NCBI RefSeq assembly: GCF_004010195.1
Contig: NC_057718.1
Span: forward strand, 101,821,908-101,882,514
Direction of reading: 5' to 3'
Source: Chiloscyllium plagiosum
Taxonomy: Eukaryota
DNA: 60,607 bases
In this document: positions 5,354-54,959 of the stretch, piece after piece
How the letters are laid out: the number at the start of each line of letters is the position of its first letter
Position numbering within the stretch: position 1 is the first letter of the stretch
The notes under the pieces: generated by a model
Databases searched by the model: none
Seen by the model: the letters and a program-made list of their open reading frames with translations, nothing else
Told to the model about the DNA's origin: nothing
Made by a program: the position numbers and the translations under genes

Positions 5354-5651
5354 ACTGCTGCCTCACAGCGCCAGAGATCCAGGTTCAATTCCCGCCTCAG
5401 GCGACCGTGTGTGTGGAGTTTGCACATTCTCCCCGTGTCTGCGTGGGTTTCCTCCGGGTGTTCTGGTTTCCTCCCACAATCCAAACAATATGCAGGTTAG
5501 GTGAACTGGCCATGCTAAATTGTCCATAGTGTCAGGTGAAGGGGTAAATGTAGGGGTATGGGTCTGGGTGGGTTGCGCTTCAGCGGGTCGGTGTGGACTT
5601 GTTGGGCCGAAAAGCTGGTTTCCACACTGTAAGTAATCTAATCTAATCTAA
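5354..5651 (+). mobile_element. HE1-type V-SINE, slightly 5'-truncated
   Basis: B-box ggttcaattccc, V-domain, (TAATC)n tail. Confidence 0.92.
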
Positions 5652-7872: not shown

Positions 7873-8032
7873 TGATTTGGAGATGCCGGTGTTGGACTGG
7901 GGTGTACAACGTTAAAAAATCACACAATACCAGGTTATAGTCCAACCAACTAATAAAGGAGCAGCACTCCGAAAGCTAGTGCTTCCAATTAAACCTGTTG
8001 GACTATAACCTGATGTTGTGTGATTTTTAACT
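7873..8032 (-). mobile_element. Penelope-derived hairpin element, family B
   Basis: Inverted arms ttaaaaaatcacacaataccaggttatagtccaac / gttggactataacctgatgttgtgtgatttttaa; ~35-nt tail; 12-bp TSD TTCTTCAAATCA at 7861-7872 and 8033-8044. Confidence 0.85.
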
Positions 8033-15899: not shown

Positions 15900-16212
15900 A
15901 GATTAGATTACCTACAGATTAGATTACCTACAGTGTGGAAACAGGCCCTTCGGCCCAACAAGTCCACACCGACCCGCCGAAGTGCAACCCACCCATACCC
16001 CTACACCTAACACTACGGGCAATTTAGCATGGCCAATTCACCTGACCTGCACATCTTTGGACTGTGGGAGGAAATCGGAGCACCCGGAGAAAACCCACGC
16101 AGACACGGGGAGAATGTGCAAACTCCACAGTCAGTCGCCTGAGGCAGGAAATGAACCCGGGTCTCTGGCGCTGTGAGGCAGCAGTGCTAACCACTGTGTC
16201 ACCGCGCCGCCC
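15900..16212 (-). mobile_element. HE1-type V-SINE, full length
   Basis: Head gggcggcgcggtg, V-domain, tail with duplicated agattagattacctac. Confidence 0.93.
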
Positions 16213-22105: not shown

Positions 22106-22326
22106 AAAAACAGAAGTAGTTGCTGGAAGAGCTCAGCAGGTCTGGCAGTATCAGTGAAGAGAAATCAGAGTTAACGTTTTAGGTGCTCAGAACCATTCTG
22201 AGGAAGGGTCACTGGACCAGAAATGTTAACTCTGATTTCTCTTCACCGACGCTGCCAGACCTGCTGAGACTTTCCAGCAACTTCTGTTTTGTTTCCAATT
22301 TACAGCATCTGCAGTTCTTTGGGTTT
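22106..22326 (+). mobile_element. Old Penelope-derived hairpin element
   Basis: Inverted arms (aaaacagaag...ttaacgttt / aaatgttaac...cttctgtttt), degenerate CTGAGGA...GAAA core, cagcatctgcag tail; flanks ttatcaaatttatgc / ttattaaattaaagc resemble a decayed TSD. Confidence 0.75.
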
Positions 22327-25397: not shown

Positions 25398-25706
25398 GAT
25401 TAGATTAGATTCCCTGCAGTGTGGAAACAGGCCATTCAGCCCAACAAGCCCACACCGACCCTCCGAACAGTGACCCACCCAGATCAATTTCCTTCTGCCT
25501 AACTTATCTATCTCTATAGGCAATTTAGTATGGCCAATTCACATGATCTACACATCTTTGGACAGTGGGGGGAAGCTGCAGCACCCGGAGGAAACCCACG
25601 CAGACATGGGGAGACCATGCAAACTCCACACAGACAGTTGCCAGAGGGTGGAATCGAACCGGGTCCCTGGCGCTGTGAGGCAGCAGTGCTAACCACTGAG
25701 CCATCA
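25398..25706 (-). mobile_element. HE1-type V-SINE
   Basis: tggctcagtggttagcac A-box, ggttcgattcc B-box, V-domain, (TAATC)n tail. Confidence 0.9.
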
Positions 25707-25908: not shown

Positions 25909-27353
25909 CTGCCAGGCACAACAAAAGTAGTATTACAGACCCAAATAAATAAATTTCTCCGCATTTAATCTACTTTCCACAGATGCACAGCAGTTAGATG
26001 GAAAACAGGTTCATCTGGATCACTGGCTATTAAAAGAGATTCCATAGCTGCCTAGTTATTTAAGTTCACATTAGGTGGTTACTCTATCATAACAGGAGAA
26101 GTGGGCCAAGCACCCCTTGAGCACACCCCACCATTTCCTGAGACCATGTCAGATCTCATCATAACCTCAACTCTACTACCCTGTCCACACAGCCATAGCT
26201 CTTGATAAATGTTGATGTACAAGATACTTAATAATCCAGTCTCCCTTCTCTCTGGGGAACACCTCAGAGAGAAAAAAATCCTCATCTCAGTCTTAAACGG
26301 ACAATCACATTTTTGTTTGTTCTGGACTCGTGGATGTCATCTCAGCATCCATGATGACCTTGATTTACATTAAAATTTCATAAAAGCATAAACCATGGGA
26401 TAAGCACCGAAGACTCAGAAGAATGTTTCATGTGTGTCTGGACAGAGGCATAGTTGCTACTGCAAGAGTTAGGAAAATAAAATCCCAGTAACCACTCGAA
26501 TTTAAACGCAGGTTCTGGATATGGTATCATTCTGTTATCATTCTGGTTCTGAACAGGCTGCAGTTAAAAATTGTGAGTTTAAATGGCAATGCAGAAGAAA
26601 TGGAAATACTTTTTGAGATCTCCACAGTGACAAACACTTGGAATTACCACACTTCATCTAAATCGCCACACAACCCATCATTAAAAAAAAGATGCACAAC
26701 TATTAATAGAGGGCAGTTCAGCATCAACCACACTTTGTGGATTTGGAGTTACACAAAGGCTAGACTGGGTAAGGATAACAGATCCATTTCTCTATCGATC
26801 ATTAGAGATTAGCTTTCAATTTCAGATTTTTAAAAAATATACCTCAGTGCTATGGTGGGAATTGAACACAGGCTCCACAGCATTAACCAATGGAATGATT
26901 GGATCACCATGAAGGTAGATAAAATGGTGACTGATGAGTATTCAATTCAAACAGAGTTATGTTATTTATGTTGTGAACGTGCAATTCTGTGAAGTTCTCA
27001 TTGCTATTAGATGTATGCTGGCCAATTTTTTTTTTGCGAATTCATTAACTAAGAATAGTTTCTTCCACTGGCATGCTTTCTCTAACTGTTGAGACTTTTC
27101 TCTGCCAACTTGTGTTTTTTCACCTTGATGAAACAGATCTAAAACACAGCATTCAAAGATTTGCAATGAAACATTCCTAACTGAGAACCAGAGGGCACAA
27201 CCCGAGAGTGAGGGGACCACCCTTTAGAACGGAGGAGGAATTTCTTTAGCCAGAGTGTGGTGAATCTATGGTACTCATTGCCACAGAAGGCTGTGGAGGT
27301 CAAGTCATTGAGTGAATTTAAGATAGAGATAGATTGGTTACTATCAAGAACCT

Positions 27354-27579
27354 GTGAGGAGAAAGTGAGGTCTGCAGATGCTGGAGATCAGAGCTGAAAA
27401 TGTGTTGCTGGAAAAGCGCAGCAGGTCAGGCAGCATCCAGGGAACAGGAGAATCGACGTTTCGGGCATAAGCCCTTCTTCAGCCCTTCCTGAAGAAGGGC
27501 TTATGCCCGAAACGTCGATTCTCCTGTTCCCTGGATGCTGCCTGACCTGCTGCGCTTTTCCAGCAACACATTTTCAGCT
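27354..27579 (-). mobile_element. Penelope-derived hairpin element, family A
   Basis: Perfect 91-bp inverted arms 27392-27482/27489-27579 plus ~36-nt tail; TSD TACTATCAAGAACCT at 27339-27353 and 27579-27593. Confidence 0.9.
27455..27516. ncRNA. Back-to-back hammerhead motifs, one per strand
   Basis: CTGAAGA-A-GGGC-TTAT-GCCC-GAAA-CG-TC at 27489-27516 (+) and its mirror at 27455-27482 (-). Confidence 0.6.
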
Positions 27580-28573
27580 ACTATCAAGAACCTATCAAGG
27601 TTTACAGGGTGAAGGCAGGAGAATGGGATAGAAAAACATATCAGTCATGACTGAATAGTGGATCAGACTCAATGGGCCGAATGGCCTAATTCTGCTCCTA
27701 TACCTTATGACCTTACGTGGAAGTGAACTAATAATATTAAACTGTATGCAGATATTTAGCAAAGTTTATTCCTGAATCAACTGAGACTCAAAATGTGCTT
27801 TGAAAAGCTTCATTTGAGAGGTTTTTCCTCCCTTCATTTAAAGTTTACATTTTCCACATTAAAAACAAACTTATTTGGCCATAACATGCTTTATTCCCCC
27901 ACTGGTCTTTGTATCTTGGAGGTTTTCACATGAAGGATTCAACTTACAAAGGAGAGGACTTGGGTTGATAATAGTGACAAAATGTGACTCTGCATTGGTG
28001 AAAAATAAACCAAGGATGTGCAGTGCACATTTCCCAAGGTGCATCAGCAGAATTTACCTAACCAAACAGAATAACAGTTTCTAATAACTCTCTTTCTGGC
28101 TTTGTTACTACAAGTACTTCGAGAAAGCCATGTTTCAAATTTTAAAATTTAAAACAATGCAAAGGTTCTGCACATGAAATTAGATCATAAAAAGAGAGAG
28201 CCTACTGCAGCTTCTGTTTAGTATTTTAGTAGAAAGGGATACTATACCACATTCATAAATGTTATTTGTGACTTACATTAGGTAAAGACATGAAGGATAT
28301 AAAATCAAAACAGAATATAAAAAAGACAGAATGCATGGTTTTAAAGATGGAAACTAAATTACAATCACACCTGAATAAATTGTCCAAAACTTTCTAATCC
28401 TGCTTCAGATGTAGCTCACGTTTGATCAGATCTCTTTTTTAAATTTCACGAACAGTTTTACATTCACAGTTGGATTGTGCATGTGATGTAAATTCAGTAC
28501 AGTTTATTTCATTAGTGTATTGAAATATTTTTCCAATAACAAAAGGAGTATATACAAGCAAAACAGTACTTAC

Positions 28574-28639
28574 TCTAGCTTCATTTTGTTGAAGCTTCTC
28601 CTCCATACTTAAAGCTGTTGGAGAATCCAACAACGCAAT
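28574..28639 (-). CDS. KIF16B: KIF16B exon 11 (66 nt)
   Basis: ctttcag|IALLDSPTALSMEEKLQQNEAR|gtaagt. Confidence 0.95.
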
Positions 28640-29147
28640 CTGAAAGGAAAACATATTTGGCTGTGAGTAAACACATTTCATTACAAAACTAGACAACATG
28701 GTATTGAAACATTTCAGCTCTGTAGTGGAGAGATCTCATCAGCATCACCTGTACTGTTTTGGAGATGTGTTTTGCACAAGTTTTGTACTATTTTGTTGAA
28801 TTCTTGTTCAAATGAGAATGGCTGGAAGATAAGGTACATAGCATTTTAGCATTTTATAAATCACAAACTAGAAGCACAGTAAAGCACCCGCTACATGGCC
28901 TTTCTCAACTTTCTCTTATTTCAGATATCAGATCATAAACATCTACTGCATTACTGTGGATTTTTCACCCTTCTACATCAGTCAGTAGATAATGCAAATT
29001 GCAGATAAATTACAGCAGTTTAGGGTGCTGTGGATTTACATCCAATTTACAATTAACAAAAAAAAATTCTAAATAACAAGATACAATATCAAGGTCCCAA
29101 AACTAAACAGTATTCTGGTCAATGTTAATTAAATAATTTATTGATTT

Positions 29148-29812
29148 CTTTATTCATTCACGGAATGTGGGCGACGCTGACTAGGTCAGCATTTATTGCC
29201 CATTCCCATTTGATCAGTGGGAAGTTAAGAGTCAACTACAGTACTTAGAGTCTGGAGCCATACATATTGTCTAGCTATCACCTTTGTTAACAGCTAACCT
29301 GAGAATGCAACGTTTTAGAAAAAGGTTTTGTGATTTACACATGAAAGAAGTGAAACTATCATGATATTCTAACAGATGAAAGGCTTAACAGACAATCAAT
29401 TTTTCAATGTGTAATTTCAGTTACATCACACTGTAAAGTTTTGCTATATAGTCTGTGTGTTAGGATTGAGCCCTCCACTACCACCTGATGAAGGAGTGAC
29501 GCTCCGAGAGCTAGTGTGCTTCCAAATAAACCTGTTGGACTATAACCTGGTGTTGTGTGATTTTTAACTTTGTACACCCCAGTCCAACACCGGCATCTCC
29601 AAATCATACCAAAGACAGCAGTTTCCTTCCCTAAAGGGATTAATGATCCAGATGGATTTTCATTGACTATCAACATGTTATTAGAGACATGCTTCCAGAT
29701 TTTTATTGAATTCAAATTCCCCTATCTACCATGGCAGGATTCAAAACTAGGGTCTCCAAACATTACCTAGATCTCCGGATTAATAGTCTAGGTGATAACA
29801 CTATCACTAGTG
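29148..29812 (-). mobile_element. Second SINE family copy, interrupted by a Penelope family B repeat
   Basis: attcattcacggaatgtgggcgacgctg...gcatttattgccca; resumes at gcagtttccttccctaaag after 29606. Confidence 0.7.
29267..29606 (+). mobile_element. Penelope-like 3' terminal repeat, family B, inserted in a SINE
   Basis: Same terminus as the 7873 element; CAC-CTGATGA-AGGAG..CTCC-GAGA-GC-TA-GTG hammerhead-like motif near 29482-29515. Confidence 0.8.
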
Positions 29813-30094
29813 TTTAAATTTTTTAATTAGTTCAAAATGATTCAAAGTTAAAATTAAACATCAGTGGATAAAGTCCCTCTCCATTTCTCAGGACATTGCT
29901 TGGAAGTCTTTAATTAACCCAGGCACACATGTAGCTGCTATATCATGTAAGAAAGAACAGATAAAAATGCAAGTCACAAATCAATTTTGTCAAAGATGTC
30001 TATATTTTCATGACATCAGTTTCTATATGCTGGACCTTGAATAATGAAAAAGCAGAATATGACTAAAAAAGATAACAATTACATAATTCCGAGG

Positions 30095-30800
30095 TACGGG
30101 TGTTCTACTGAGCAGTCACAATAAGTTAGTATTACAGGTGCAGCAAGTGATTAAGGCTGCTAATGGAATAGTATATTTTTCCAGGAGAGCACTTGAACAT
30201 AAAAAAAAGATGTTATGCGTCAGCTTTGGAGGTGATTGGTCAGATCACATCTCAAATACAGTGCGCAGGTTATTTATGGAAAGGAAGCAAATACATTGGA
30301 GGTGGTCCTGAGGAGGTTGACTAGATTGAAACCTGGAACGAGCAGATCGTCTTATGGGGGTTAGGTTGGATGGGCTGGGATTGTTTCCACTGGAGTTTCG
30401 AAGAGTGGGGTGAGATTTGATTGAAGTGCTGATTAAAGTGCACAAAATCCTCAGTGGTCTTGACAACTGGATATCTAAAGGATGTATCATCTTGTGGGTC
30501 TGTCTAGAACTAGAAGAAGCCGTTTTAAAATTAGGGGTCACTGTTTCAGGAAAGAGGAGCAGCAAAACTGTTTTCCTGATGGTTGAGACACTCAGAACAC
30601 ACTACCTCAGAAGGCAGTGAATGAACGGATCATTAAATATTTTTAAGGCAGAAGAGGTCCATTGATTTTTTTTATTGCTTAATAAAAATCTGATGTGAAA
30701 TTCGAACACAAACATACCAGCCATGATCTTATTGGATGGTACAGGAGGCTCAAGGGTTCAAATGATCTATAGCTGCTCTGTTTAAACTATTCATATGTTT
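30095..30800 (+). mobile_element. Old CR1 LINE 3' fragment
   Basis: Colinear with the 8860-9485 copy. Confidence 0.7.
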
Positions 30801-31773
30801 GTATGTTTAACCAATTGTCCAATACAGAAATGTTATCTCAGAAATATTACAGCAGTCAATGCTTTGCAACCAAAAATATTACTTCCTTACTGTTTCAAAT
30901 GCAGTTTCATGAGATTAACAAAGTGCTTTGGATAGTTTGGATTGCATTGACACCAAAATTAAGAGAGAGAATATCATATAATAGGCATTTTATTAAAGAT
31001 TTTAAATTAAAGTCTCTAATAAGAAAGTAATATTTCACATTAAACCAGATAATCAATACAAGCTTCTTTTTTAAAAAAAAGGTCTGGTTAGTTTTAATGC
31101 AGTGAATTCTAGTTCACTGAAGAATCAGATAAACTAACTGAAAACAAAGTCCAGTTCTGAAGAAGTCGCATCAAAGTTGACAGGTTAACTGTCTGTCTCT
31201 CCGTCTTTTTCCACAAAACTGGGCCAGACCAGAGTTTCTCCAGCAGCTTTATTATTTTAGGTGGATTAAGTACACCTTAGCACCACAGACCTGCTGCATA
31301 TTACTGGACTCCTAATGCTAGCAGCTACACAGTTATGTTCCAAACACATTATTTTTAAATCTCACCCATAGGCTCAGCTAAAGCCATAAAAGAAAAACTT
31401 GGCTGCCACCTAGAGTTGAAACAATAAAATTGGAAATGTTTTTAAGAATTATTAATCATGATCAAGAGTGGATTTCATCCAAGAGAAAAGTTTCTTAATT
31501 AGGTTTATAATTCTACAAAGCTAAAATCAGCTCCATTAATTTCTTCCGGAAGGGTCATTACTGCAGCCCCATTATCCCTGCAACAATCCACAAAAAAGAA
31601 GCAACTTCTGTAAGCCAAACTCAATGAGTATAAATGATTTAGCCATTAGTTGTACAACTCAATTAGTCCTGGAGGTTACCACAATGTAATAAAGCAATTA
31701 AAAATGGTAACCAGGAGCCCTTTTCCCTCCAAAAATAAAAATGAATTACCAATTCAAAAGATTTAAAACTAAC

Positions 31774-31949
31774 CTGATTCCCCTGAGCAAGTAAAGCCTT
31801 CAGTCGTGCTATTTCAGCACGTAGCTCACGAATAAGTTTGACATTAGAATCTTCATTAATGGTAGGTTTGTTAATGATGTTTTTAGCTCTGTTTGCATAG
31901 CGAAGGGTACTCAATGTTTCTCCATAATTGACATCCGCAGGTGAAATGG
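31774..31949 (-). CDS. KIF16B: KIF16B exon 10 (176 nt), motor end and neck
   Basis: ttggtag|(T)[58 protein letters not shown]|gttagt. Confidence 0.97.
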
Positions 31950-32163
31950 CTACCAATAAAGGATAACAAAAAATAATAAAGTGTTGAATGAACACTTGTA
32001 TTCACCACATTTTTATATTAGACATACCTGAAAGAAAACAAAATTTGTGGCACAACCCGCATTGGACTGATATACCATTAGGTGTTTGCAAGGTTTGTGA
32101 AGGTTTGTAGCTCAGGTTGAGGTTTAGCATGTAGGTTTGCTCGCTGAGCTGTAGGTTTGTTAT

Positions 32164-32203
32164 CCAGACGTTTCATTACATGGCTAGGTAACATCATCAG
32201 TGG
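32164..32203 (-). ncRNA. Minimal type-I hammerhead ribozyme motif (sense in KIF16B pre-mRNA)
   Basis: CCA-CTGATGA-TGTTACC-TAGCCA-TGTAAT-GAAA-CG-TC-TGG: complete core, 3-bp stem I, near-absent stem III as in Penelope-element hammerheads; activity untested. Confidence 0.65.
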
Positions 32204-32825
32204 CGACCTCCAAGTGAAGCGAAGCTGTTGTCTCCTGCTTTCTATTTATATCTTTCTCCTGGATGGGGTTCCTGGGGTTTGTGGTGATGTCATTTCCTGT
32301 TTGTTTTCCGAGAGGTTGATAGATGGTATCTAGATCTATGTGCTTGTTTATGGCGTTGTGGTTGGAGTGCCAGGCCTCTGGGAATTCTCTGGCATGTCTT
32401 TGCTTAGCCTGTCCCAGGATAGATGTGTTGTCCCAGTCGAAATGGTGGGTTTTTTTCCTCCGTGAGTAGGGCTACGAGGGAGAGAGGGTCGTGTCTTTTT
32501 GTGGCTAACTGGTGTTCGTGTATCCTGGTGGCTAACTTCCTTCCTGTTTGCCCTCGTAGCCCTACACACGGAGGAAAAAAACACCATTTCAATTGGGACA
32601 ACACATCTATCATGGGACAGGCTAAGCAAAGACATGCCAGAGAATTCCTAGAGGCCTGACACTCCAACCACAACGCCATAAACAAACACATAGATCTAGA
32701 AACCATCTATCAACCCCTCAGAAAACGAACAGGAAATGACATCACCACAAACCCCAGGAACCCCATCCCGGACAAACATATAAATAGAAAGCAGGAGACA
32801 ACAGCTTCGCTTCACTTGGAGGTTT

Positions 32826-32865
32826 CCACTGATGATGTTACCTCGCTAGGTAATGAAAAGTCTGG
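32826..32865 (+). ncRNA. Minimal type-I hammerhead ribozyme motif
   Basis: CCA-CTGATGA-TGTTACC-TCGCTA-GGTAAT-GAAA-AG-TC-TGG. Confidence 0.6.
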
Positions 32866-34005
32866 ATATCAAACCTACAGCTCAGCGAGCAAACCTACAC
32901 CCTACAACATTCGGTGTGGACTGACATAACATGAAGGTGAATTTCACAACCAGTGGCAAAACAATGGTGGTTGCCACTGACCTCGATGATATCTAAATGT
33001 CCTCCAGTAGTGTGGATTTGTCCTTTGTTGACCTCAAGGGCTTCATGAATCTCATGTATTGTCACACACTGGCCACTTCCATTACGAAGTTAAACTAACT
33101 GGCAAACTGAATGCAGAGAAAGCCTTAAATTTTTAACAATAAAAAATAGCCCCGGTATGGAACAGGTTACATGCAGGAGAATTCAAAGCAAGTTAGATCT
33201 TGCAATCAGGATGGCATCTATAACTTCAAAATAATGGTCAAGACATGCACTAGTGTCTCTGATCTATGCAAGAGATGTCAACACAAGAACAAACCATTAA
33301 ATTTCCAGACACCAATGAAATGAGCATGGGGGAAATGACTGGTATTGTGTTGTATGGTTTCGATCTATTATACTACAGCAAGACAAAGATGAATTGCAAT
33401 TTAACACTCAAACAAATACAAAATTTTCTAACATCTGTGTATACTTCTATAGCGCCATTAAGGCTCTTTAGAGGAGCCATGTCAAGCACTGTCTGACATT
33501 GAGCTTCTGAGGCAATATTATTAGGTTTGGTAACAAAAGTTTGGTCAGAAAAGCAGATTTTGAGGAATGTTTGGCATGGAGAGTGAGAGAAAAAATAATA
33601 CTGGGATAGATAGGTAGTACAGTTAAACCATATGCAAAGTAAGTCATCCTGAGGTTTTACAATCACTAGTTTGTGCAGATTTGGAGATGAGAAATTCTGG
33701 TTGATACACTCTTGGGCATTAGAGAAAGGGGTACTGGATAGTCATCTAAATTGTTGTACCCAAATACATAGTGGATCAGTCATCAAACATCAGAAAAATT
33801 AAAGTTGTATCTGAAAGGTGTCTTACAGATTCTTTGATTATCCCTTAGCAAAATGTCCCACTGCATTTCACAGTGTAAAAAGCAATATATAAATAGAAGT
33901 CATTATTATTCAACAGTATAAGTAAGATTAACCTGGAAAAAAAATTCAAGGTAGTCAAATTAGTAAGCCTTGGGACCAGGGAAGGGTAATGCTCAAGAAG
34001 TCCTT

Positions 34006-34108
34006 GATGTGGAGGTGACTTCACCTGACGAGGGGGCTATGCTCTGAAAGCTTGTGATTTCAAATAAACCTATAGGACTATAACCTGTTTTCGTGTGACT
34101 TCTGACTT
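34006..34108. mobile_element. ~100-bp family B Penelope remnant with a hammerhead motif
   Basis: 10-bp TSD AGAAGTCCTT at 33996-34005 and 34109-34118; TCAC-CTGACGA...GAAA-GC-TT-GTGA. Confidence 0.75.
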
Positions 34109-34788
34109 AGAAGTCCTTAGCAGGGAAATTTGAATATGTAATATGATAAAAAGTGGAGTGAAAGTTGTTAAGGAAATTGCATTTGCTGTTGAATATTAAG
34201 CTAGGTCGGTTAAAGTTCTAGACACTAGCCTTAACTTGCATTTTTTTGACCCCTTGGTTGCTTAACAATTGATCTCACGTAGAGCACCAGATATTAAGAT
34301 AATGTTCAAAGTTGGCAGAACAACAGTCAAAACTAAAAGAAAAATGTATTTGTTGATTTGGAAATTAAATCACTCCGTACAAGGGACTCCCATTACACTT
34401 CCGTAAAATACAAAATGTTTTCTAGAGTTCCCACTCAATGCTTCCTTATTTATACAATTGTTTTGTTTAACATCCCACCCACCCTGGAGAGATATCATTT
34501 GAGCTAGGCCTGTTCAAGGTTAGACATGCATCAAGAATGAGTTCACAAACATATCAAAAATCAATATCTGGAACCAATCTAAATCCTTCTCTGAAGGTAG
34601 ATATATTGAGTAAAATTGGCATGGACAGACCTCAGCTAACTCGCAACTGGTTGTATTATTCGGTGTCATACAATTAGTAACAACTTTTATTTTTAAAGCA
34701 GGCGATGTTTGGAGTAACTAATAAGCTTAACAATACAATAAATATGTTGACCTTGAAATTGCAAGCATTATAAAAACAAAAATCTTAC

Positions 34789-34920
34789 TGGCAATCATAA
34801 TGGTTTTGGAGTTTCCACCAAGGCTGTCTTTCAATAACCAAGTCAAAACTGAATCTCTGTAAGGCACAAACACTTGTTTCTTCTTTGCTTGAGAATTTGT
34901 CCTATCCTGAGACAAATCAG
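34789..34920 (-). CDS. KIF16B: KIF16B exon 9 (132 nt), loop 12/K-loop
   Basis: tttacag|(A)[43 protein letters not shown]|gtaaga; lies within ORF 34727..34978. Confidence 0.97.
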
Positions 34921-35037
34921 CTGTAAAAACAGAAAGCAATAAAAGTTCAAACCCATGGCAGTCAGTTACTTTTAACAATTTTTAAATTGTTTCAAGATTA
35001 TAAGCAGTTCAAGAAAAACTGGAATAAAAGATCTTAC

Positions 35038-35206
35038 CCAAAGCAGATATAACATTTCCCAATGTGACTAAAGACTTATTAATATTCCCTCCTTCTTTCA
35101 ATCGTACGCCAGTGGCACCTGTAGCATCTGCTCTTTCACTTCCTGCAAGATCGACCAAGTGGATCTTGCTAATTGTTTCACAAGGCATTTCAGCATCAAA
35201 TTTGGC
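35038..35206 (-). CDS. KIF16B: KIF16B exon 8 (169 nt), switch II
   Basis: atcctag|[56 protein letters not shown]|gtaaga. Confidence 0.97.
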
Positions 35207-36849
35207 CTAGGATTTCAATTAAGAAAGTAAATCAGCACCCATCACAATGACTCTCTTTAAGACGCACAGTAAAAGATATGAGTGTAAAGGAAATGTAATG
35301 AAAATTACAACTGTTTTCCCTCACCCATGCATCAGACTGGAAGTGGAGATGTCCAAGACACTGGGTTAAGTCAACTGTTATGGGAAATTATCAAGACATG
35401 TTCAGAGCACTAATTAGCTTATAAACGGTTAAAGTGCTAACAGATGAGAGAGCCGGGTAAAATAAGAAAGCAAGCTTGCTGGCATGCCTTCTTGAAGATT
35501 TAATTACTTCACGTACAAGGTACATAAAATGGACAGATGAGGAAATGGAGTGTACTGGCTCTTAAATTTGCTGTTGGCAGTTTCAGCAAATGCACAAAGA
35601 AAAAAAATTGATAGATATTGTGCAATCTGTCAGGTACTGGGCACTAGAAACGGCCAGATAGACCTCAGTTAGTTTTTCCAGTTTATAGATTCCAATATAC
35701 TAGTGCTTTGTAATTTAAAAATGGGAGCAGACCAATAGATCCCTGTTTATTAGAAATACTCCAGTTATAAATAAGTCTATATACTTATGCCTCCGATCTG
35801 TAGTCTGCTTTAATGACATTCTCTGCCATTACAGCCAGTCAAGACATCATGGCACCCCACACAATTTCAAGTGGCAAGCGTTGTAATGAACGAGTAATTA
35901 TTAAACTAAATCTGCAATATCAAGCAAAGCTTGCAGGAACTACGGTTAATGTGCAAAATAATTTGAATGTGTCAGAGGAAAACCCCACCCTACAACAACA
36001 ACAATTACGCCCTATAATGACTACAGAATTCAAACTAGTTATGAACAGAAACTAAATCTAGCTCACATTCTTTAAGGCAGCCTGCAAGTCTTTCCAGAAA
36101 AGGGATTTAAATGATTGTGATTACACTATTTCTTCATGAGAGATATTTATTAAACAATTTTTTTTAATATAAAGAATCTGAGAAAATGATATGTCTCATT
36201 AAATAGGAATAACTTGTGTACAGTGCTAATACAGAAAACATACTAGGTATCTCAGAAATTTAACTCCTGCACAAGCGAAGGACAGAACACTTTTAAAATG
36301 TCTAAAGCAGGGAGTAATAGGCAGTTGTACAGTAATGCGGTTAATCATATCATTTGGGCCTGATACCCTTTATTTTTGAAACAAAGGGTAAAGGAAGAAA
36401 ATGCAGACTTCATGACAATTTTGAAAATGTTTAACCAAATGAACCTTTTCCATTTTAAACAGCACGGGAAGAGTTAAGATCAAAACAATAGACACAATAA
36501 GCTCTAAAAGATGACACTGACTGAAAACTGTTTGGAAGGTAGCTTCGCAACTTAACAATGCTTATTAGAATTAAATTTGGTTAAGTCACTCTTCAAAATG
36601 TTGAATGAGCAACCAGGTGAGTTCAACTTACAATTTGCCCTTAGGAAATTCCAGCAAATGTCACATGTGCAATACTAATCACCATAAAGCATGATAGAAA
36701 TGCTTTTGTCTTCCAACTTCATTAATGAAACCTACAATACTTAGCTCTCGTTAATGTCTCAAGAGTAACAACTGACACAGTTATTCCTTCAGGCTGACAA
36801 GATATTTGATAAAAGTGAATCCATTAAAGGTTGTTTTCAGATGACTCAC

Positions 36850-36992
36850 TTGAGTGAAGTTGATGGTGAAAATGGCATGGGAACGACTGCTGACATCATT
36901 CATCCCTGTGGCAGCAGTTGTTCGATTGATGTTTCCAGCTTCCATGAGTTCTTCCACATCGCTGTAATTCTGCACCAAATGCTTTGATAAAT
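36850..36992 (-). CDS. KIF16B: KIF16B exon 7 (143 nt), switch I
   Basis: catttag|(D)[47 protein letters not shown]|gtgagt; lies within ORF 36781..37002. Confidence 0.97.
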
Positions 36993-37740
36993 CTAAATGC
37001 ATAAGACAAGGATGCTTATAAAATAAATGCAGTATAAAAAGACATTCATAAGTCCAAGTTTAATAAACTCAGTCTGATCAATTCAAATCCTTGTATAGAA
37101 CAGAACAGGTTATGTGCATTACAGCAAATTGTAAAAGATGACTGTAAAGGCAGCCAGTTGGCCCACGTTTTGAAAAGAAAAACTATTGTTAATACCCAGT
37201 AAATTGTTCTCAATCCAACAAGTCTTTTATTCTAAGCACATATCTAAAAGCGACTATTGAATCCATTCTTGCCACCATACCAAGGTGCGCATTCCAGATC
37301 ACAGGAACGGATTGCCTTCCTCACCTCGCCGAAGGCTTTTTTTGCTAATTACCTCAGAGGTTGGTTCAATGCCAGAGGAAACAACTTCATCTTATTTATT
37401 CTATGATGAATGAATTAAATTAACAACTTAAAACTAATTTATATAAACTACAGTGGTCAATTGATCGGTCTTACGCTGGGGTTGCATTCACCAGCAATAA
37501 TATTCAGTGCCTCTCTATTAAACTATTTCTAAAAATAATACCGGGCTTATTCCCACTGAGTTGCTGAGAGAGAGTCAAGTACAGGCTGACCGACATATCT
37601 ATGGGTCCGATTTCTGCGGTTTACCGGGTTATTACAGGGAATATTCCAGAACCAGGGACTGGGGGCAGCCGTGAAGGTAAGTTTTCCATTTAAATGAATG
37701 GGTTCATGGCATTCTGCGGTTTCGGGCTTCCGCGATAGGT

Positions 37741-39787
37741 CATAGAATCATAGAGATGTGCAGCATGGAAACAGACCCTTCGGTCCAACCCGTCCATGCC
37801 GATCAGATACCCCAGCCCAATCTAGTCCCACCTGCCAGCACCCGGCCCATATCCCTCCACACCCTTCCTATTCATATACCCAGCCAGATGCCTTTTAAAT
37901 GTTGCAATTGTACCAGCCTTCACCACTTCCTCTGGCATTCATTCCATACACGTACCATCCTCTGCGTGAAAAAGCTGCCCCGTAGATCTCTTTTATATCT
38001 TTCCCCTCTCGCCCTAAACTTAGTTCTGGATTTCCCCACCCCAGGGAAAAGACTGTCTATTTATCTATCCATGCCCCTCATGATTTTATAAACCTCTAGA
38101 AGGTGACCCCACATCCTCCGACACTCCAGAGAAAAAAGCCCTAGCCTATTTAACTTCTCCCTATAGCTCAAATCCTCCAACACTGGCAACATCCTTGTAA
38201 ATCTTTTCTGAACCCTTTCAAGTTTAACAACATCTTTCCGATAGGAAGGAGACCAGAATTGCACGCAACATCCCAACAGTAGCCTGACCAATGTCCTGTA
38301 CAGACACAACATGACTTCCTAACTCCTGTACTCAATTTTCTGACCAATAAAGGAAAGCATACCAAACACCACCTTCACTATCCTATCTACCTGCAACTCC
38401 ACTTTCAAGGAGCTATGAATCTGCACTCCAAGGTCTCTTTGTGCAGCAACACTCCCTAAGACCTGACCATTAAGTGTATAAGTCCTGCTGAGATTTGCTT
38501 TAACAAAATACCACACCTCACATTTATCTAAATTAAACTCCATCTGCCACTCCTCAGCCCAAATGATTAAGATCCCGTTGTAATCAGAGGTAACCTTGTT
38601 CACTGTCCAGTACACCTCCAATTTTGGTGTCATCTGCACTTACTAACTATACCTCTTATGCTCACATCCAAATCGTTTATACAAATGATGAAAAGTCGTG
38701 GCACTCCACTGGTCACAGGCCTCCAGTCTGAAAACAACCCTCCACCACTACCTTCTGTCTCCTACCATCGAGCCAGTTCTGTATTCCATGAGAACTAACC
38801 TTGCTAACCAGTCTCCCATGGGGAACCTTGTGGAATGCCTAACAGAAGTCCATATAGATCACATCTATCGCTCTCCCCTCATCAATCCCCTTTGTTACTT
38901 CTTCAAAAAACTCAATCAAGTTCATGAGACATGATTTCCTACATACAAAGCCATATTGGCTATCCCTAATCAGTCCTTGCCTTTCCAAATACATGTCCAT
39001 CCTGTCCCTCAGGATTCCCTCCAACACGGGGTGGCATGGTGGCTCAGTGGTTAGCACTGCTGCCTCACAGCACCAGGGTCCCAGGTTCAATGTCAGCCTC
39101 AGATGACTGTCTGTGTGGAGTTTGCACATTCTCCCAGTGTCTGCTTGGGTTTCCTCCGGGTGCTCCGGTTTCCTCCCACAGTCACAAAGATGTGCAGGTT
39201 AGGTGAATTAGCCATGCTAAATTGCCCATAGTGTTAGGTGCATTAGTCAGAGGGAAATGGGTCTAGATGGGTTACTCTTCGGAGGGCCAGTGTGGACTGA
39301 TTGGGCCGGATGGCTTGTTTCCACACTGTAGGGAATCTAATCTAAAAAACAATTTGCTTATTGGTATGTAGTTCCCTGGCTTGTCCTTACCATCCTTCTT
39401 AAACAGTGGCACCACGTTATCCAACCTCTAGTTCTCCGGCACCTCACCTGTGACTATTGATGATACAAATATCTCAGTAAGAGGCCCAGCAATTGCTTCC
39501 CTAGCTTCCCACAGAGTTCTAGAGTACACCTGATCAGGTCCTGGGGATTTATCCACTTTTTATGTGTTTCAAGACATTCAGCACTTCCTCCTCTGTAATA
39601 TGGACATTTTTCAAGATGTCACCATCCATTTCCCTACATTCTGTATCTTCCTTGTCCTTTTCCACAGTAAAGACTGATGCAAAATACTCATTTAGTCTCT
39701 CCCCCATCTCCTGCGGCTCCACACAAAGGCCACCTTGCTGATCTTTGAGGGACCCTATTCTTTGCCTAGTTACCCTTTTGTCCTTAT
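37741..39787 (-). mobile_element. CR1-clade LINE (HER1-like), 5'-truncated ORF2 RT and 3' end
   Basis: LIRDSQYGF..SCLMNLIEFFEEVT..DVIYMDF, ADDTKIGG, YRTLVR..CVQFWSP; 3' terminal ctatgattctatg repeat; frameshifted. Confidence 0.92.
39028..39346 (+). mobile_element. HE1-type V-SINE inserted in a CR1 LINE
   Basis: Full head and tail; interrupts the CR1 RT coding sequence. Confidence 0.92.
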
Positions 39788-41437
39788 GTCTTGGAACGCA
39801 TCCCTCACGGGTACTGGGAGACTACTGCATTGAGATTGGAACTACGTACATTAAATGTACAATGTGTTTTGTCACAAAACAAAATCCTTATTCAATACTC
39901 AAGACAAATGACCGGCTGTACTTATTTTGACTTTTTAAAACCTGACAGGAAATGTTGCATTTTCCATGTGGTTACTCAAGGCAATGGGTCAGTGCATTCT
40001 TTAACAAGGAGAGGAGTGTTCAATAGAAAGTACACAATCTATTATTCTACTGGTATGGTGAAGCTGCATCCTTTTAAGACCATAAAAGTGAAATCCATGA
40101 ACAATTAGAGCTCACACTGAAGGTAAAATTAGATGAAATGATCTTTGGTCAAAACTCAACTGGACAGTTGAGAGTACTGATCAGTTTCAGGCTGCATACC
40201 AAAATAAAGTTCTCCTTTTTCTAAAAGTTTCACAACAGTTTTTGTGAAGTTTCCATTTTAAAAATTTTATTTTTAACATCCTGGAATGATTCATCTAGTT
40301 TTGAAATCATTTGAAAAAGCAAACTAAATTATTATTTGAAGTCAGATATACAGATTTTTTGACTGCTGTGCTGGTTACCCGAGAGAATTATACAGTTACT
40401 GGGAGATTACCGAAAGTGACACACCTAGTCTGCGCATGCTGGGACCAAATTGTAGTTGTTAACTTCTAACTGAGAATCTAATTGCTTTGTTAAGAATATT
40501 AAATGCAAAGCCAGAGCCTTCAGAGAAGTTCCAAACACTGATTAAAAGCACCGAAAGAAAGATAGAAAAGAAAAAATTCTAGAGATACATTTAATTGCAT
40601 TATTTGTTAACATGATGTACACAATCACTTATGATTTTATGTCATCTTATTAATATCAGTATTTAAAATGAAGACAAAATGGACTGTTAAATTATTTTTG
40701 AATAATTCGATTGTTCAACTTTGTGCTCCTGTGGTGTTGAATTTTATTTGCTGTTCATATTTGTTCATTTGAGATTTCTTAACTATAGCAAGGCAATATT
40801 CAGGCTTGCACAAACAAGTCACAGGGAACATTCACATAATGCCAAGATGTTCAACAACTACAAGTTCCCTCAAGCTTCAACAATATACCCACTGATCAAG
40901 AGTATTTGGGCAAAGTGAACATCACTGACTAGGGAGTTCAGCATAACCAGCCATGTCAACACCATGGCTACAAAAGCATGTCGGATTAGGTACTCTACAA
41001 GAGTTGACTCGATTCATGGTCTCCAAAAGCCCCTCCACAAAATACATGTGTAATCCAGAAATACGGCTAGTTGCTCAGCAGTCACGCAAATGGTTACGGC
41101 CACAACTCATAATTACACTATATTTAGAAACATACCTTCATTAAGCAGTAGGTGGAATAAAAAGAAAAGGGAGACAAAAAATTGGTGTCAAATATTCTTG
41201 CACATGATAAATGCTAGAAACATTACACTATAAGGAAATCTAAATTCGAGCCTTACAAGGAAGCAACTTGTATGGAAAAGGTCATGTATGGGCTTGTCTG
41301 TCTCCAAGACAAGCATCAACAGTTTGCATTGATTTTTTTTTATCCTCTTAATTGCAATCGCAACTACTACTCCTGAGGCAAAACAACTCATGATCCTTAT
41401 TAGCATTGTTCATCATTTGTTATCTCATTGCACTTCA

Positions 41438-41956
41438 GGGGAGACAGAACGCCAACTTGTGGAACGTTTCAGAGAACATCTCCGGGACGCACACTAAACA
41501 ACCCCACCGCCCTGTATCTGACCACTTCAACTCCCCGTCCCACTCCGCCAAGGACATGCGAGTCATGGGCCATGTCCACTGCCAAATCCTAGCCACCTGA
41601 CAACTGGAGGAAGAACACTTCATCTTCCGCCTTGGGACCTTCCAACCACATGGCATCAATGTCAATTTCACCAGTTTCCTCACCTCCCTTCCCCCCACAA
41701 ATCAAACCCTCCAACTTGGCACCGCCCTCTTGAACTGTCCCAACATGTCCATCTTCCTTCCAACCTTAACTCCCAAGCCCCACCGCCCTCTCATTTATCT
41801 CTCGGCGCCCTTGGGCCCTCACCACATTGCTGATGAAGAGCTTATGCTCGAAACGTTGATTCTCCTGCTCCTTGGATGCTGCCTGATGCGCTATGCTTTT
41901 CTAGTGCCACACTTTTGACTCCAATCTCCAGCATGTGCGGTCCTCACTTTCTCCTC
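41438..41956 (+). mobile_element. 5'-truncated Penelope-like element (GIY-YIG C-terminus + terminal repeat)
   Basis: GETERQLVERFREH and HFNSPSHS motifs; ends ...tcctcactttctcctc; 14-bp TSD CTCATTGCACTTCA at 41424-41437 and 41957-41970. Confidence 0.9.
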
Positions 41957-42184
41957 CTCATTGCACTTCATGTTCACCTTGAAGGAGGTGCCAACTGACA
42001 TTTAAATTTTATATGCAGTGAACACATTATACTGTATAATATAACATCAAAACCAAAGCTGATTCTCCTGTAATCAATTTGGATTGGCAACTTCGTAAGC
42101 TGTATCTCCATCCGAGTCAAAACATGAAATGTCTACAGTTAAAATATCTTAAGTTTGAATTTTCTCTTACAGACACATTCTTAC

Positions 42185-42294
42185 CCTCTACATATGGACC
42201 TTCCTTTGGATGTTCCCTCACTCGTAAATTGTACGTTTTGGTTGACTTCCGCCTGAGCAAATCCCTTACTCGCTCATTATAAATCTCCAGGTAG
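42185..42294 (-). CDS. KIF16B: KIF16B exon 6 (110 nt)
   Basis: aaacag|[36 protein letters not shown]|gtaaga. Confidence 0.97.
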
Positions 42295-42815
42295 CTGTTT
42301 TGTGAAAGAAAGAAACCATTTTACAATACTTTACAGGTTACTAATTTAATTTAGAATACCCCAAGTATCTGACACAACCCACTTGAGAAAGCGCACTGAT
42401 ACTTTGGCCCCATTATTTCCAGGATTTTCACAAAAGTTAAAGATTAATCAAATCATTCCAGAATCCCAATTTTCTTGTCAGATGAACTTAGATTCACCTG
42501 GTTTCTGTCATGACAATTTGTTCCATCATATCTAACTCCTGAAATCACCTGTTGAATTCCTCTGAAAACTTCTGTACACACCTGAGAGCAAGTTTTCTGG
42601 GTGAAACCATTTTTCTTTGGTTTAGATTTTTTTCCAGCATTTTTTCCAACTATGGAATTGTTACAGCGTTTTATTTTATTAGGAGGACCACAGACTCAGT
42701 TTCTATTTGGATGCATCAGATAATCAAAGTCTTTGATTTTTTCCCTGAAATTCATAGTTCAGCTTGTTCAGTTTTGACATTGTGTCTGTAAGGAACGTCA
42801 AATCGAGCAACCACA

Positions 42816-43127
42816 CAGCACGGTGGCACAGCAGTTAGCACTTCTGCCTCACAGCGCCAGAGACCTGGGTTCAATTCCCGTCTCAGGCGACTGACTGTGT
42901 GGAGTTTGCACATTCTCCCCGTGTCTGCGTGGGTTTCCTCCGGGTGCTCCAGTTTCCTCCCACAGTCCAAAGATGTGCAGGTCAGGTGAATTGGCCATGC
43001 TAAATTGTACGTAGTGTTAGGTAAAGGGGTAAATGTAGGGGAATGGGTGGGTTGCGCTTCGGCGAGTCGGTGTGGACTTGTTGGGCCGAAGGGCCTGTTT
43101 CCACACTGTAAGTAATCTAATCTAATC
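42816..43127 (+). mobile_element. HE1-type V-SINE
   Basis: Near full length, (TAATC)n tail. Confidence 0.93.
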
Positions 43128-44087
43128 ACGCATTACCCGACAGCTCACTGCACACCTCTTTTAAACAATTTAAACAAAAAGTGTCAATTTCAGGCAATAA
43201 ATCTGAAGATCTTTGTAGGATTGCCCCAAGACATAACCACTTCACATCAACATGGAGGGTTAGCTCGTTGCCCACAGCACTGAGCTATTGAGTAAGGATT
43301 TAAACAAACGGTGCTAAGAGGCTGAAGCTTGAATTGAGTTTACAAGCTCAACAACTTTCGTTACATGAGAAATGCCCACAACTTTACTCACTTTCTTAAA
43401 GATTATAATGGTAGTAATTGACAAAAAAACCCACCAAAAACAGGACAATTGCTGCAAAATGCAATAAAGCCTGCATTTATGCACAGCCATACTTGGCACC
43501 AGTCAGATGGAAACCAATTTCTTGGCTGGAATGTATTCCTTAAGCATGTAACTTTTCAGTTTGTTGTAGATATCTTCACCTAGCTCTCGCTTTAAAAAGA
43601 GGTAAAAACAGGGAGAAGATCCTTTTTTTGTTGTTCGGTTCTAAAAACAATGCATGCAAAATCAATTAGCTGGATTATGCCCATCACGAGGGTAGATTAA
43701 TCAAATTGCAGTGAGACATATTCAGAGTCCTTCAGGTTCTGCTTTGATTGAAAGATGTCATTGAATGCAGATTGCACTTGTCTTCCTACTGTGGACATAC
43801 CAAGTGATTTGCTCTGCATTGCCATGATTGTTGCTTTGTTTTTAAAATCTTTGAAAAGCATCAGCTGCCAAAGTCATAGATTTTTTAAAAATACTTTGCC
43901 ATTTGTGAAAGTGATGCTTCAGTGCAGGCCTTTTGCTGGTTCTGAAGAAAATGACTGTTGAGCTTTCAGAGTAGCCTTCAGTTTATCAACTTTCTTTGTC
44001 TAACACATGCTATTCATGGGAAAGCTAATGCTAAATTTACTGTGCACTATCTTGTTGTTCCAAAGAAAGAAAATTCCAATTTCCTAC

Positions 44088-44185
44088 CTTACTTCTGTGC
44101 GAAATGAAGCTTCATCCCACCTAGACCTCCCTGCAATCCTGTCATACAGCCCTTGACAAATTCGAGGTATGAGGCCTGCATCATC
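44088..44185 (-). CDS. KIF16B: KIF16B exon 5 (98 nt)
   Basis: actttag|DDAGLIPRICQGLYDRIAGRSRWDEASFRTEV(S)|gtagga. Confidence 0.95.
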
Positions 44186-44214
44186 CTAAAGTAGAATGTA
44201 CAATAGATTGTTAA

Positions 44215-44515
44215 TAACAAGGGGATACAGTTTTTAAAATGAAAGGCAGAGAGTTTAAAGGGGATTTAAGGAAAAACATTTTCATCCACAGAGGGGTGTG
44301 ATTGTGGAATGCACTGTCTGAGAGGGTAGTTGAGGCAGGAAACCTCAACCTTTTAAAAAAAAACTTACTGGGATGAGCAGCTGAAGTATCATAATTTATA
44401 AGTCTCAAAAAGCCTAACTCAGAAAACCACGACTAGATTAGGTAGTGGTATATTTTTAGTGGTACAGACTCGATGTGCTTAAGGGCCTCTTTTGTACAGT
44501 ACGATTCTATGATTG
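44215..44515 (+). mobile_element. CR1 LINE 3' fragment next to the exon 5 acceptor
   Basis: Similar to 6490-6712; ends gattctatgatt. Confidence 0.75.
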
Positions 44516-44561
44516 TCTACGACATAGGAGAGATGTGGATGTCAAGTTTACTTTCTGATAG

Positions 44562-45680
44562 AAACACAGAAACAATGAAAATAGCTACAGGAGTAGGCCA
44601 TTCAGCCCCACAAGCCTGCACCACCATTCAAATTGACCATGGCTGATCATACAATTTCTGTCACCCACTCCCTCTTTCTCTCCATATCCCTTGAGCCCTT
44701 CAGCCACGAGGGCCACATCCAGTTCCCTCCTGAATATATCTAATGAACTGGTCCCAAAAGCTTCCTGTGGTAGAGAATTCCACAGGTTCACAACTCTTCC
44801 TCATCTTAGTCCTAAATGGTTTACACCTTATTTTAGACTGTGAACCCTAGGTCTGGACTTCCCCAACATTGGGAACATTCTTCTCACGTCTAGCCTGTCC
44901 AGTCTCACCCATCAGGTATTTATGATTCTATGAGAGGAGAAAGTGAGGGCTGCAGATGCTGGAGATCAGAGCTGAAAATGTGTTGCTGGAAAAGCGCAGC
45001 AGGTCAGGCAGCATCCAAGGAACAGGAGAATCGACGTTTCAGGCATAAGCCCTTCTTCAGGAAAGCCCTTCCTGAAGAAGGGCTTATGCCCGAAACGTCG
45101 ATTCTCCTGTTCCTCGGATGCTGCCTGACCTGCTGCGCTTTTCCAGCAACACATTTTCAGCTATGATTCTATGAGATTCCCCCCTCAGTTCTGCCATCCC
45201 AGGAATCATTCTGATGAGCCTTCGATAGATTCCCTCAGTAGCAAGAATGTCCTTCCACAGACTAGGCGACCAATACTACACACAATATTCAAGATATGGC
45301 CTCACCAAGGCCCTCTTTAACTGTAGCAAAATATCCTTCTTCCTATACTTAAATTACTACAGCATGCCATTAGCTTTCCTCAACACCCGCTGAACCTGCA
45401 TGCCAACCTTCTGCGACCGTTCCACCATGACACCCAAGTCTTGTTGCACTTCAACTTTTCCTAAACTGCCACCATGCAGATAGTCCTGTTTTTACCAAAG
45501 TGTATAATGTCACATTTATCCATATGTTATATTTGCCAAGTATTTGCCCACTCAGCTAGCCTGTCCAAGTCACCCTGCAGTCTGTTAGCATTCTCCTCAC
45601 AGCACACACTGCCACCCAGCTTAGTGTCATCTGCAAATTTAGAGATACTGCATTCAATTCCTTCATCCAAATCATTAATT
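44562..45680 (-). mobile_element. CR1 LINE 3' fragment (interrupted at 44934-45162)
   Basis: [11 protein letters not shown] (gtgtcatctgcaaatt at ~45624); NLWNSLPQEA. Confidence 0.85.
44934..45162 (-). mobile_element. Penelope-derived hairpin element, family A
   Basis: Same arms and tail as the 27354 copy; 13-15 bp TSD TATGATTCTATGA(GA) at 44921 and 45162; sits inside a CR1 fragment. Confidence 0.9.
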
Positions 45681-46799
45681 GAACCCTGCTGTATTCAATG
45701 ACTGTATTGATGTATCCAATTATTTCACTTTCCTGTTGTTATTTATGTAAACCTTAAAACAAAGTCTAGCAAAACAGTAGCTCAATTAGCAAAACATATT
45801 TGGCACATCTATGTGGAATAGAAGATTTCTAGGGCACTGAATGAATCCTAAGGTAGAGGAAGCTCAAAATAGACAGCATCTAAACCAAACTGATACCAAT
45901 GTTCTCACTGAGAGGTAAATAATGCAGTATTGGTAGAGTTGAACTAGCCAAGGCTGATAAAGAAGAAAATCAGAGCTTACAGAGAGTAAAGTCAATTGCA
46001 TAACAAAACAATAGAGTCAAAATAGTCACCCTAGTGAGGGAGTGATAATATATACTTTAGGAAAATTTGACATAGCTCAAGGAGAGCCAACGTAAGGGTA
46101 AGAAAACAAAAAGAAGGGAAAAAGACCACTTGACGTTTGAATGTCAGGGCAAATGAAATATTGAACAAAGAACCAAACTGAATTGGAAAGAGCTGATGCT
46201 GCAGTCTTGATGAAAACTTTCTGGCAGGTTAGGAATAACTAAGGTCATAACTCTGAACAACAAATTTTCAGTAAAGACAAATGTATTATTACTAAAAGTG
46301 GAGTTAAACCACTAGAAAATTTACCATGTCTGTTTCAGCTGAGGTAAGAGATAATAAAAGACCCAATTGCCATATTAGGAGCACAATCAAAACCACCAAA
46401 TAGTGAGAAAACAGGAGGATGAATTGCATATACAATTTTGAAAGGTTTCTGCGACAACTTTTATTTGTACTGTTCTTTGATCAAAAACATCCCAACGCAA
46501 TTCACTGGAACATCATAAAACAAAATACCGCTGAGGTGCAAAGGGATAGCAAACTGGATAATCAAAAACCTGATCAAAAAAGTAGGATTTAAGGAGGAAC
46601 ACAGGGTAAAGAGACGTTACTTTAAAGGTATTCACTTTTATGCATTAAGGAGGTATACACTTGTTTTTTGCGAAGAATATATTAAAACAAGCCTTGAAGC
46701 CCTAGTCAAACTACATCATTTAATATCAAATTGGGGAAGGCTCAATCCACAAGCTTTGTACTGTGCCTATGCCACTAGACTCGGGTATTGGAAAATATA

Positions 46800-47028
46800 G
46801 AGGAGAAAGTTAGGACTGCAGATGCTGGAGATCAGAGCTGAAAATGTGTTGCTGGAAAAGCGCAGCAGGTCAGGCAGCATCCAAGGAACAGGGGAATCGA
46901 CGTTTCGGGCATAAGCCCTTCTTCAGGAAGGGCTTTCCTGAAGAAGGGCTTATGCCTGAAACGTCGATTCTCCTGTTCCTTGGATGCTGCCTGACCTGCT
47001 GCGCTTTTCCAGCAACACATTTTCAGCT
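46800..47028 (-). mobile_element. Penelope-derived hairpin element, family A
   Basis: Same arms and tail; 14-bp TSD TATTGGAAAA(T/G)ATA at 46786-46799 and 47028-47041. Confidence 0.9.
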
Positions 47029-47082
47029 ATTGGAAAAGATAACCAATATACTTATCCCATTTGACTATCACAAAGTTCTTAC

Positions 47083-54617: not shown

Positions 54618-54959
54618 GATTAGATTAGATTAGATTAGATTAGATTAGATTAGATTACTTACAGTGTGGAAACAGGCCCTTCGGCCCAACAAGTCCACAC
54701 CGACCCGCCGAAGCGCAACCCACCCATTACCCTACATTTACCCCTTTTACCTAACACTACGGGCAATTTAGCATGGCCAATTCACCTGACCTGCACATTT
54801 TTTGGACTGTGGGAGGAAACCGGAGCACCCGGAGGAACCCCACGCAGACACGGGGAGAATGTGCAAACTCCACACAGTCAGTCGCCTAAGTCGGGAATTG
54901 AACCCGGGTCTCCGGCGCTGTGAGGCAGCAGTGCTAACCACTGTGCCACCGTGCCGCCC
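54618..54959 (-). mobile_element. HE1-type V-SINE, full length, with (GATTA)8 tail
   Basis: Head gggcggcacggtggcacagtggttagc; CpG-rich so probably young; tail 54618-54657. Confidence 0.94.

Follow-up and report, generated by a model that had tools for sequence, protein, structure and literature searches.

Hammerhead-bearing hairpins in a shark genome as probable head-to-head insertions of truncated Penelope-like element ends

How does a genome come to hold several nearly identical hairpins that share a one-sided tail and carry a hammerhead motif on both arms? The question is raised by a 60,607-nt stretch of Chiloscyllium plagiosum DNA (RefSeq assembly GCF_004010195.1, contig NC_057718.1, positions 101,821,908 to 101,882,514; hereafter the window, in which all positions below are numbered). 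Three such hairpins, here called copies A, B and C, are built there from the 3′ ends of a Penelope-like element (PLE). An earlier note on this DNA had taken them for copies of one preformed, non-autonomous unit, akin to a short interspersed element (SINE) or a retrozyme and mobilized in trans by a Neptune-type PLE. We arrive at a different reading, to which we give a probability of about 0.6: the hairpins are 5′-truncated, head-to-head insertions of PLE 3′ ends, their ends were likely remade at each insertion, and their centre is likely a repair-type junction that recurs and not part of a self-copying unit.

Results

All three fold-backs are present as the earlier note had described them, each on the minus strand and each with a one-sided tail, inverted arms and its own target-site duplication (TSD). 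Copy A (27356-27579, 224 bp) is a fold-back of two PLE 3′ ends. Its tail (27356-27391) and the adjoining arm (27392-27482) are PLE-sense on the minus strand, the second arm (27489-27579) is 100% complementary to the first, and the centre reads CTTCAG-CCC-TTCCTG. The TSD of copy A (left 27339-27353, right 27579-27593) is exact over 14-15 bp, and the 226 bp between its two copies explain why the unit had been said to start at 27354. Copy B (44934-45162, 229 bp) has its tail at 44934-44969 and its arms at 44970-45063 and 45069-45162 around the loop AGCCC, with a GCCT variant on the tail arm; its TSD (left 44921-44935, right 45162-45176) covers 12 bp outside the unit and 15 with the junction overlap. 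Copy C (46800-47028, 229 bp; tail 46800-46835, arms 46836-46929 and 46935-47028) has the loop GGGCT, the reverse complement of that in B, and bears the GCCT variant on the short arm; its TSD (left 46786-46799, right 47028-47041) is 14 bp long with one mismatch, 10 bp being exact. Copies A and B are 94% and 96% identical to copy C, respectively.

The arms measure 91-94 nt in all three units, and all three short arms do stop at a common base (...TTTTCAGCT). The tail is likewise 36 nt long in all three, although its sequence is only near-identical, with one site that has three different bases and one private change in C. The TSDs are individual to each copy and vary in length from 12 to 15 bp (3/3); among random flank pairs, a match of at least 8 arose in 1 of about 20,000. 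A segmental duplication of A, B and C was considered and rejected, as the flanks are unrelated and the TSDs differ.

Reads and contigs were compared over 46560-46955 in 4 of 24 listed runs, namely contigs of X1, X5 and X13 and RNA reads of X21, from two organisms, A and B. The youth of the copies is borne out, in that the site of copy C appears empty in the related organism B: one contig, 1,973 letters long, agrees with the left flank up to 46799 (9 substitutions and 1 gap in 240) and runs 840 letters further without a match to the element, from which we infer the empty site.

The tail had been equated with the reverse complement of the 3′ end of an endonuclease-bearing PLE copy at 41438-41956. 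Tail and arm are indeed 81% identical to that end over 130 nt, and they match 21672-21788 equally well (81%). The piece at 41438-41956 (plus strand) is a 5′-truncated PLE fragment of a related, older subfamily, with a hammerhead motif at 41830, the tail and a 14-bp TSD. Its frame of the endonuclease C-terminus is broken, and it was rejected as the direct parent on account of the 81% identity and a different upstream sequence. An open endonuclease frame (CxxC, then YCIRC-YIG) is found in the PLE 3′ part at 20938-21800 (plus strand), together with a pseudo-long terminal repeat (pLTR) end. The GIY-YIG match of this frame, with E 0.0027, falls short of the curated threshold, and the frame shares 88% identity with a named shark reverse transcriptase-endonuclease (RT-EN) protein that carries a CX4CxxC linker; CX4CxxC is present in proteins P0001 and P0004, and CxxC in the frame in the window. 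A CX2-5CxxC linker before GIY-YIG marks Neptune and Nematis elements (Craig et al. 2021, PMC8557442). The Neptune-type label is therefore reasonable, because the kindred piece at 20938 resembles an RT-EN protein with a CX4CxxC linker, and the arms and tail can be assigned through this relative to the 3′ end of a Neptune- or Nematis-type PLE. The parent was likely of that type, the linker being seen in a related subfamily and not in the direct parent. The window contains no reverse transcriptase belonging to this family.

The 160-codon endonuclease frame (20938-21417) directly follows an assembly gap (N at 20204-20936) and within it lies a tandem duplication of 81 nt (21228-21338 and 21309-21419). 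Two more sense-strand PLE 3′ stubs, of different subfamilies, lie close together at the start of the window (1-66 and 177-292). The PLE family is very large: contig depth summed over the arm is 5-15 million, compared with a flank depth of 6.7 in X1, although this measure is not a copy number.

The three hairpins are not alone. Self-BLAST revealed eight fold-backs in the window, six of them related to the PLE family (A-E and G). Fold-back D (10858-11053, minus strand) is older and repeats the tail and arm-end geometry of A-C around another centre, with a 13-bp TSD. Fold-back E (4919-5203, plus strand), also older and of another subfamily, has its tail on the right, a homologous arm end, longer arms, yet another centre and a 16-bp TSD. 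Fold-back G (22107-22324, plus strand) is old and belongs to a more distant family; its TSD is 11 bp with 1 mismatch, and its right arm begins at its own hammerhead core after a short inverted copy. The short arm ends at the same homologous base in five of the six (A-E; the end in G was not placed precisely), across subfamilies that are about 20% apart. Throughout the family, loose ends with unrelated flanks cluster at 46801/2, the tail end, and at 46836/46841, the arm end, in both organisms, with a flank agreement of 0.34-0.42 in contigs.

Such ends have a precedent. An inverted, 5′-truncated copy and a one-sided tail of 30-40 bp are typical of PLE insertions (PMC8557442; Arkhipova et al. 2013, PMC3846280), and in vitro an anole PLE protein nicks and extends both strands, starting at two RNA positions on either side of the tail (Frangieh et al. 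2024, PMC11167929), a study in which what follows priming is called 'yet to be validated'. Shared arm ends and a common tail had been offered as the sign of a preformed unit. The same ends occur with other centres in D and E and family-wide in the reads, and they are not evidence of such a unit, because the two PLE reverse-transcription start sites set them.

The centre is more informative. At 46929 the loose ends of all four runs give the consensus TGAGG..., with a low agreement of 0.35-0.55; the parent therefore continues differently past this point, close to which many copies seem to terminate. Because this consensus is TGAGG..., the 5-nt loop of B and C does not stem from the parent. In copy C the loop completes a 9-nt sequence at 46927-46935 (plus strand, GAAGGGCTT), an inverted copy of AAGCCCTTC at 46913-46921 in the arm 6-14 bases away, and only 2 of the 1,024 possible 5-nt inserts would do so. 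The same 9-mer lies on the other strand of copy B at 45063-45071. From its sequence, we suggest that this centre is a snap-back templated insertion; inverted insertions of 3-10 nt made in this way are a known end-joining footprint, attributed to polymerase theta (review PMC9962433).

The central junctions had also been called related. Those of B and C are identical but flipped, whereas A has another join and the six related fold-backs include five distinct centres. Contigs and reads hold 74 other listed joints, many of them differently truncated fold-backs (among the 15 of 74 seen). In five of the six fold-backs (A-D and G, not E; by eye), one arm or both begin no more than about 4 nt from the hammerhead core. 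In fold-back E, too, the centre (5041-5051) seems to include a short stretch of the adjacent arm in inverted form, as in A-C.

Copy A differs from the others in its alleles as well. Both of its arms have 46884G and its tail has 46815T, neither of which is present in B or C. These alleles make up 21% of depth in the runs of organism A against 0.4% and 2.3% in organism B; loop-crossing depth, as a share of arm depth, shows no parallel jump (X1 0.14%, X5 0.023%, X13 0.085%). Given that A has other subfamily alleles than B and C, we count at least two independent origins among the three, and such junctions likely recur; by the same difference in arm alleles, A, B and C do not represent a single unit reproduced whole. 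Several alleles (at 46815, 46838, 46841, 46884 and 46914) account for 5-26% of family depth in organism A and 0.2-2.3% in organism B, and one or more subfamilies appear to have amplified strongly after the lineages of organisms A and B split.

A hammerhead on each strand had been part of the original description. The core CTGAAGA-A-GGGC-TTAT-GCCY-GAAAC-GTC is indeed present on all six arms, as are the features of the minimal PLE hammerhead (core CUGANGA/GAAA, an extra nucleotide at 9/10.1 and a palindromic 15.2-16.2), and the motif stands on both strands because the arms are inverted copies. No copy, however, is canonical on both strands: the GCCT arms (the tail arm of B and the short arm of C) lose the G10.1-C11.1 pair, and the tail arm of A loses the 2.1-1.1 pair. 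A scan of the window against Rfam at the gathering score gave 0 matches. When the three unit RNAs were folded, the probability of helix II was 0.000 in all three, at minimum free energies of -187 to -197 kcal/mol. The hammerhead is best regarded as a passenger, predicted to be unfolded in the hairpin RNA and buried in its stem. The motif of all six arms matches the definition of the minimal PLE hammerhead, which has almost no activity in monomeric form (Cervera and de la Pena 2014); here truncation cuts helix I to at most 2 bp, two of the six arms have G-U at 10.1-11.1, and the motif lies within a long duplex.

Two other roles for the motif were considered and rejected. A hammerhead spanning the two arms would have a poor stem I (by eye), and the full stem dominates the fold. 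Cleavage as the cause of truncation is at odds with a predicted site at 46898/46899, about 30 nt from the centre, where there is no depth step. When metagenome, viral and prokaryote genome contigs were scanned for the pattern of the hammerhead arm, 0 loci emerged, as expected for shark DNA. A look-up listed no RNA holder on record, a negative that is uninformative about expression.

The RNA reads of X21 carry a further signal. Changes of T>C, equivalent to A>G on PLE-sense RNA, are strand-biased at all seven listed T>C sites, being commoner in the read mates indicative of PLE-sense RNA (Fisher p 5e-3 to 7e-17). At the core adenosines 46903/46904 the edited-type share is 13% and 10% in RNA against 0.14% and 0.03% in DNA, all family copies being pooled, the DNA coming from an unmatched individual and only rows above the cut-off being counted (28 further rows). 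The six listed A>G rows of the same run are without strand bias (6/6; p 0.1-1.0) and do not show antisense-strand editing. The T>C signal spans 46832-46919 and includes the extra A at 46919. PLE-sense transcripts of the family are likely a target of A-to-I editing by ADAR in double-stranded RNA.

Discussion

The features described here can be accommodated in one route of insertion. The RT-EN protein would nick both target strands 12-15 bp apart, and priming would give one cDNA from the tail end and a second from a point 36 nt inward. Synthesis of both would tend to break off immediately 5′ of the hammerhead core (...CAGGAA). The 3′ end of one cDNA would then snap back on itself, GAA pairing with TTC, and add GGGCT(T), and the snapped-back end would join the other cDNA through 1-2 nt of microhomology. 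Copy A would have been made by this route independently of B and C, with a different join. The snap-back insertions of polymerase theta (PMC9962433) similarly have an inverted-repeat insert taken from the flanking strand and a 1-2-nt microhomology join, but here two retroelement cDNA ends would be joined, with either a host polymerase or the PLE reverse transcriptase as the possible maker.

Several observations weigh against this reading. The joining of two cDNAs is something we infer rather than show. B and C have exactly the same junction, and they differ at 2 of 193 positions in inverted register as opposed to 7 in direct register; the inverted register fits better because the GCCT variant stays with the orientation of the loop. 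Because this variant has about 4.6% of family depth, an independent origin of B and C would be a coincidence of roughly 1 in 20. Depth across the loop into the second arm amounts to 10,040 in X1, 1,082 in X5 and 4,952 in X13, with 6.4 reads in X21, against a single-copy flank depth of 6.7 (X1) and 11.8 (X13) and at most 214 for other joints (among the 15 of 74 seen); contig depth is not copy number, hairpins drop out of short reads, and the share of insertions with a GGGCT centre is uncertain. So dominant a centre fits template amplification better than pure recurrence. In addition, the treatment of 46815T and 46884G as one subfamily rests on their matching frequencies and on copy A, and the editing signal is subject to the pooling and sampling noted above. 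The centre is multi-copy in both organisms while the site of copy C is seemingly empty in organism B, and the centre is therefore older than C. B and C probably share one centre, whether by descent, by template reuse or by conversion between neighbours 1.7 kb apart, conversion between neighbouring copies being a general process.

These points lend themselves to a rival explanation that we consider possible, though doubtful: the centre is inherited and only the ends are rebuilt. A GGGCT fold-back would be transcribed and reused as a template, and both cDNAs, primed at the tail and arm ends, would read through the loop. Whichever cDNA supplied the centre would set its orientation, so that the same centre could lie either way relative to the tail, and the hairpins would be a non-autonomous subfamily with an unusual flip rule. 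The loop and the linked single-nucleotide polymorphism (SNP) do flip together relative to the tail between B and C, although such linkage is seen in B and C only, as the mapped stretch ended 2 bases before the diagnostic site on the second arm. The multi-copy presence of the centre in both organisms before copy C, and its excess of about 50-fold over any other listed joint, are also as this explanation would have it, and even the junction of A can be derived if one cDNA stopped after the loop and the other before it, with an AG/CT join. Yet copy A carries other subfamily alleles, the reverse transcriptase would need to unwind a 94-bp stem, and, set against arm depth, loop-crossing depth amounts to just 0.02-0.14% in contigs and some 1% in RNA reads. 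Near-variant centres, up to some tens of percent, could sit below the 2% listing threshold, the snap-back accounts for the loop without descent, and one window with matching centres among 241 scanned in the genome is a plausible pick by selection.

The earlier proposal, in which a preformed SINE or retrozyme in the shape of a 229-bp hairpin is copied from one end to the other and is processed or circularized by its hammerheads, now seems very improbable. The near-identical length and ends of the three copies and the centre common to B and C speak for it, but the same ends are found with other centres, end-to-end copying cannot flip a centre against the tail, and the copies are not collinear with one master; the B/C flip, the alleles and junction of A and the lack of tandem repeats contradict it. 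The hairpins resemble metazoan retrozymes (Cervera and de la Pena 2020, PMC7229834) in being short (150-450 bp), non-coding and hammerhead-bearing; retrozymes, however, are repeated in tandem, head to tail, have canonical type I motifs and give circular RNAs, whereas here single head-to-head units carry minimal motifs. Tandem Repeats Finder detected 0 tandem arrays in 26000-48500, the hammerhead is predicted to be unfolded, and no site where many RNA molecules begin or end is listed in the one polyA single-cell run, which is a poor test. Least credible of all, and in our view hardly worth entertaining, is a miniature inverted-repeat transposable element (MITE) or palindromic DNA transposon. 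Such an origin would explain the long inverted arms, but not the one-sided tail, the variable TSDs of 12-15 bp or the homology of the arms to PLE 3′ ends. Retrotransposition, as had been supposed, is favoured over a DNA MITE by these TSDs and by the lack of symmetric MITE ends.

We therefore retain head-to-head insertion with a recurring junction as the preferred reading. It places the hairpins close to the insertion units of endonuclease-bearing (EN+) PLEs, with which they share head-to-head inverted pLTR ends, a 36-nt tail at one end, a variable TSD, palindromes or microhomology at the inverted junction, and relatives that have CX4CxxC before GIY-YIG. Unlike those units, both arms are here cut to about 94 nt with no open reading frame between them, truncation gathers at the 5′ edge of the hammerhead core, and one templated centre has multiple copies and is found either way round with respect to the tail, a feature not met in the available portions of PMC3846280, PMC8557442 and PMC11167929.

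The window holds further repeats outside this family. A larger fold-back of another family lies at 32125-32904, with 330-nt arms that are 93% complementary, a 120-nt spacer and a CTGATGA...GAAAC motif at 32200 on the minus strand; a TSD was searched for and not found. At 7915-8028 there is an old, small fold-back of a third repeat family, with related pieces at 29516 and 34054, a truncated hammerhead-like stem and no TSD found. Another abundant short repeat, which we take to be SINE-like, occurs at 4748-4921, 5351-5648, 15916-16201, 25402-25703, 39029-39347, 42818-43127 and 54643-54959, and fold-back E is inserted into one of its copies.

Fold-backs of this class are a known by-product of PLEs, and the insertions described here are real and young. 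In the literature searched, which left most subscription papers outside, we found no described palindromic non-autonomous Neptune or Penelope family, no PLE twin priming and no paper on a shared, flipping PLE centre. The remaining value of the locus is mechanistic, as the origin of the head-to-head inverted ends of PLEs is left unresolved in the available text of PMC11167929 and related papers. Given an assembly, the two-cDNA model can be put to a direct test through the flipped, non-parental centre of B and C and its linked SNP. If true, an inherited centre would serve as a natural tracer of PLE integration, revealing that a single RNA gives rise to two cDNAs, one per nicked strand. The editing signal, for its part, suggests that the abundant inverted ends are a source of double-stranded RNA in the shark, one that includes the adenosines of the hammerhead core.

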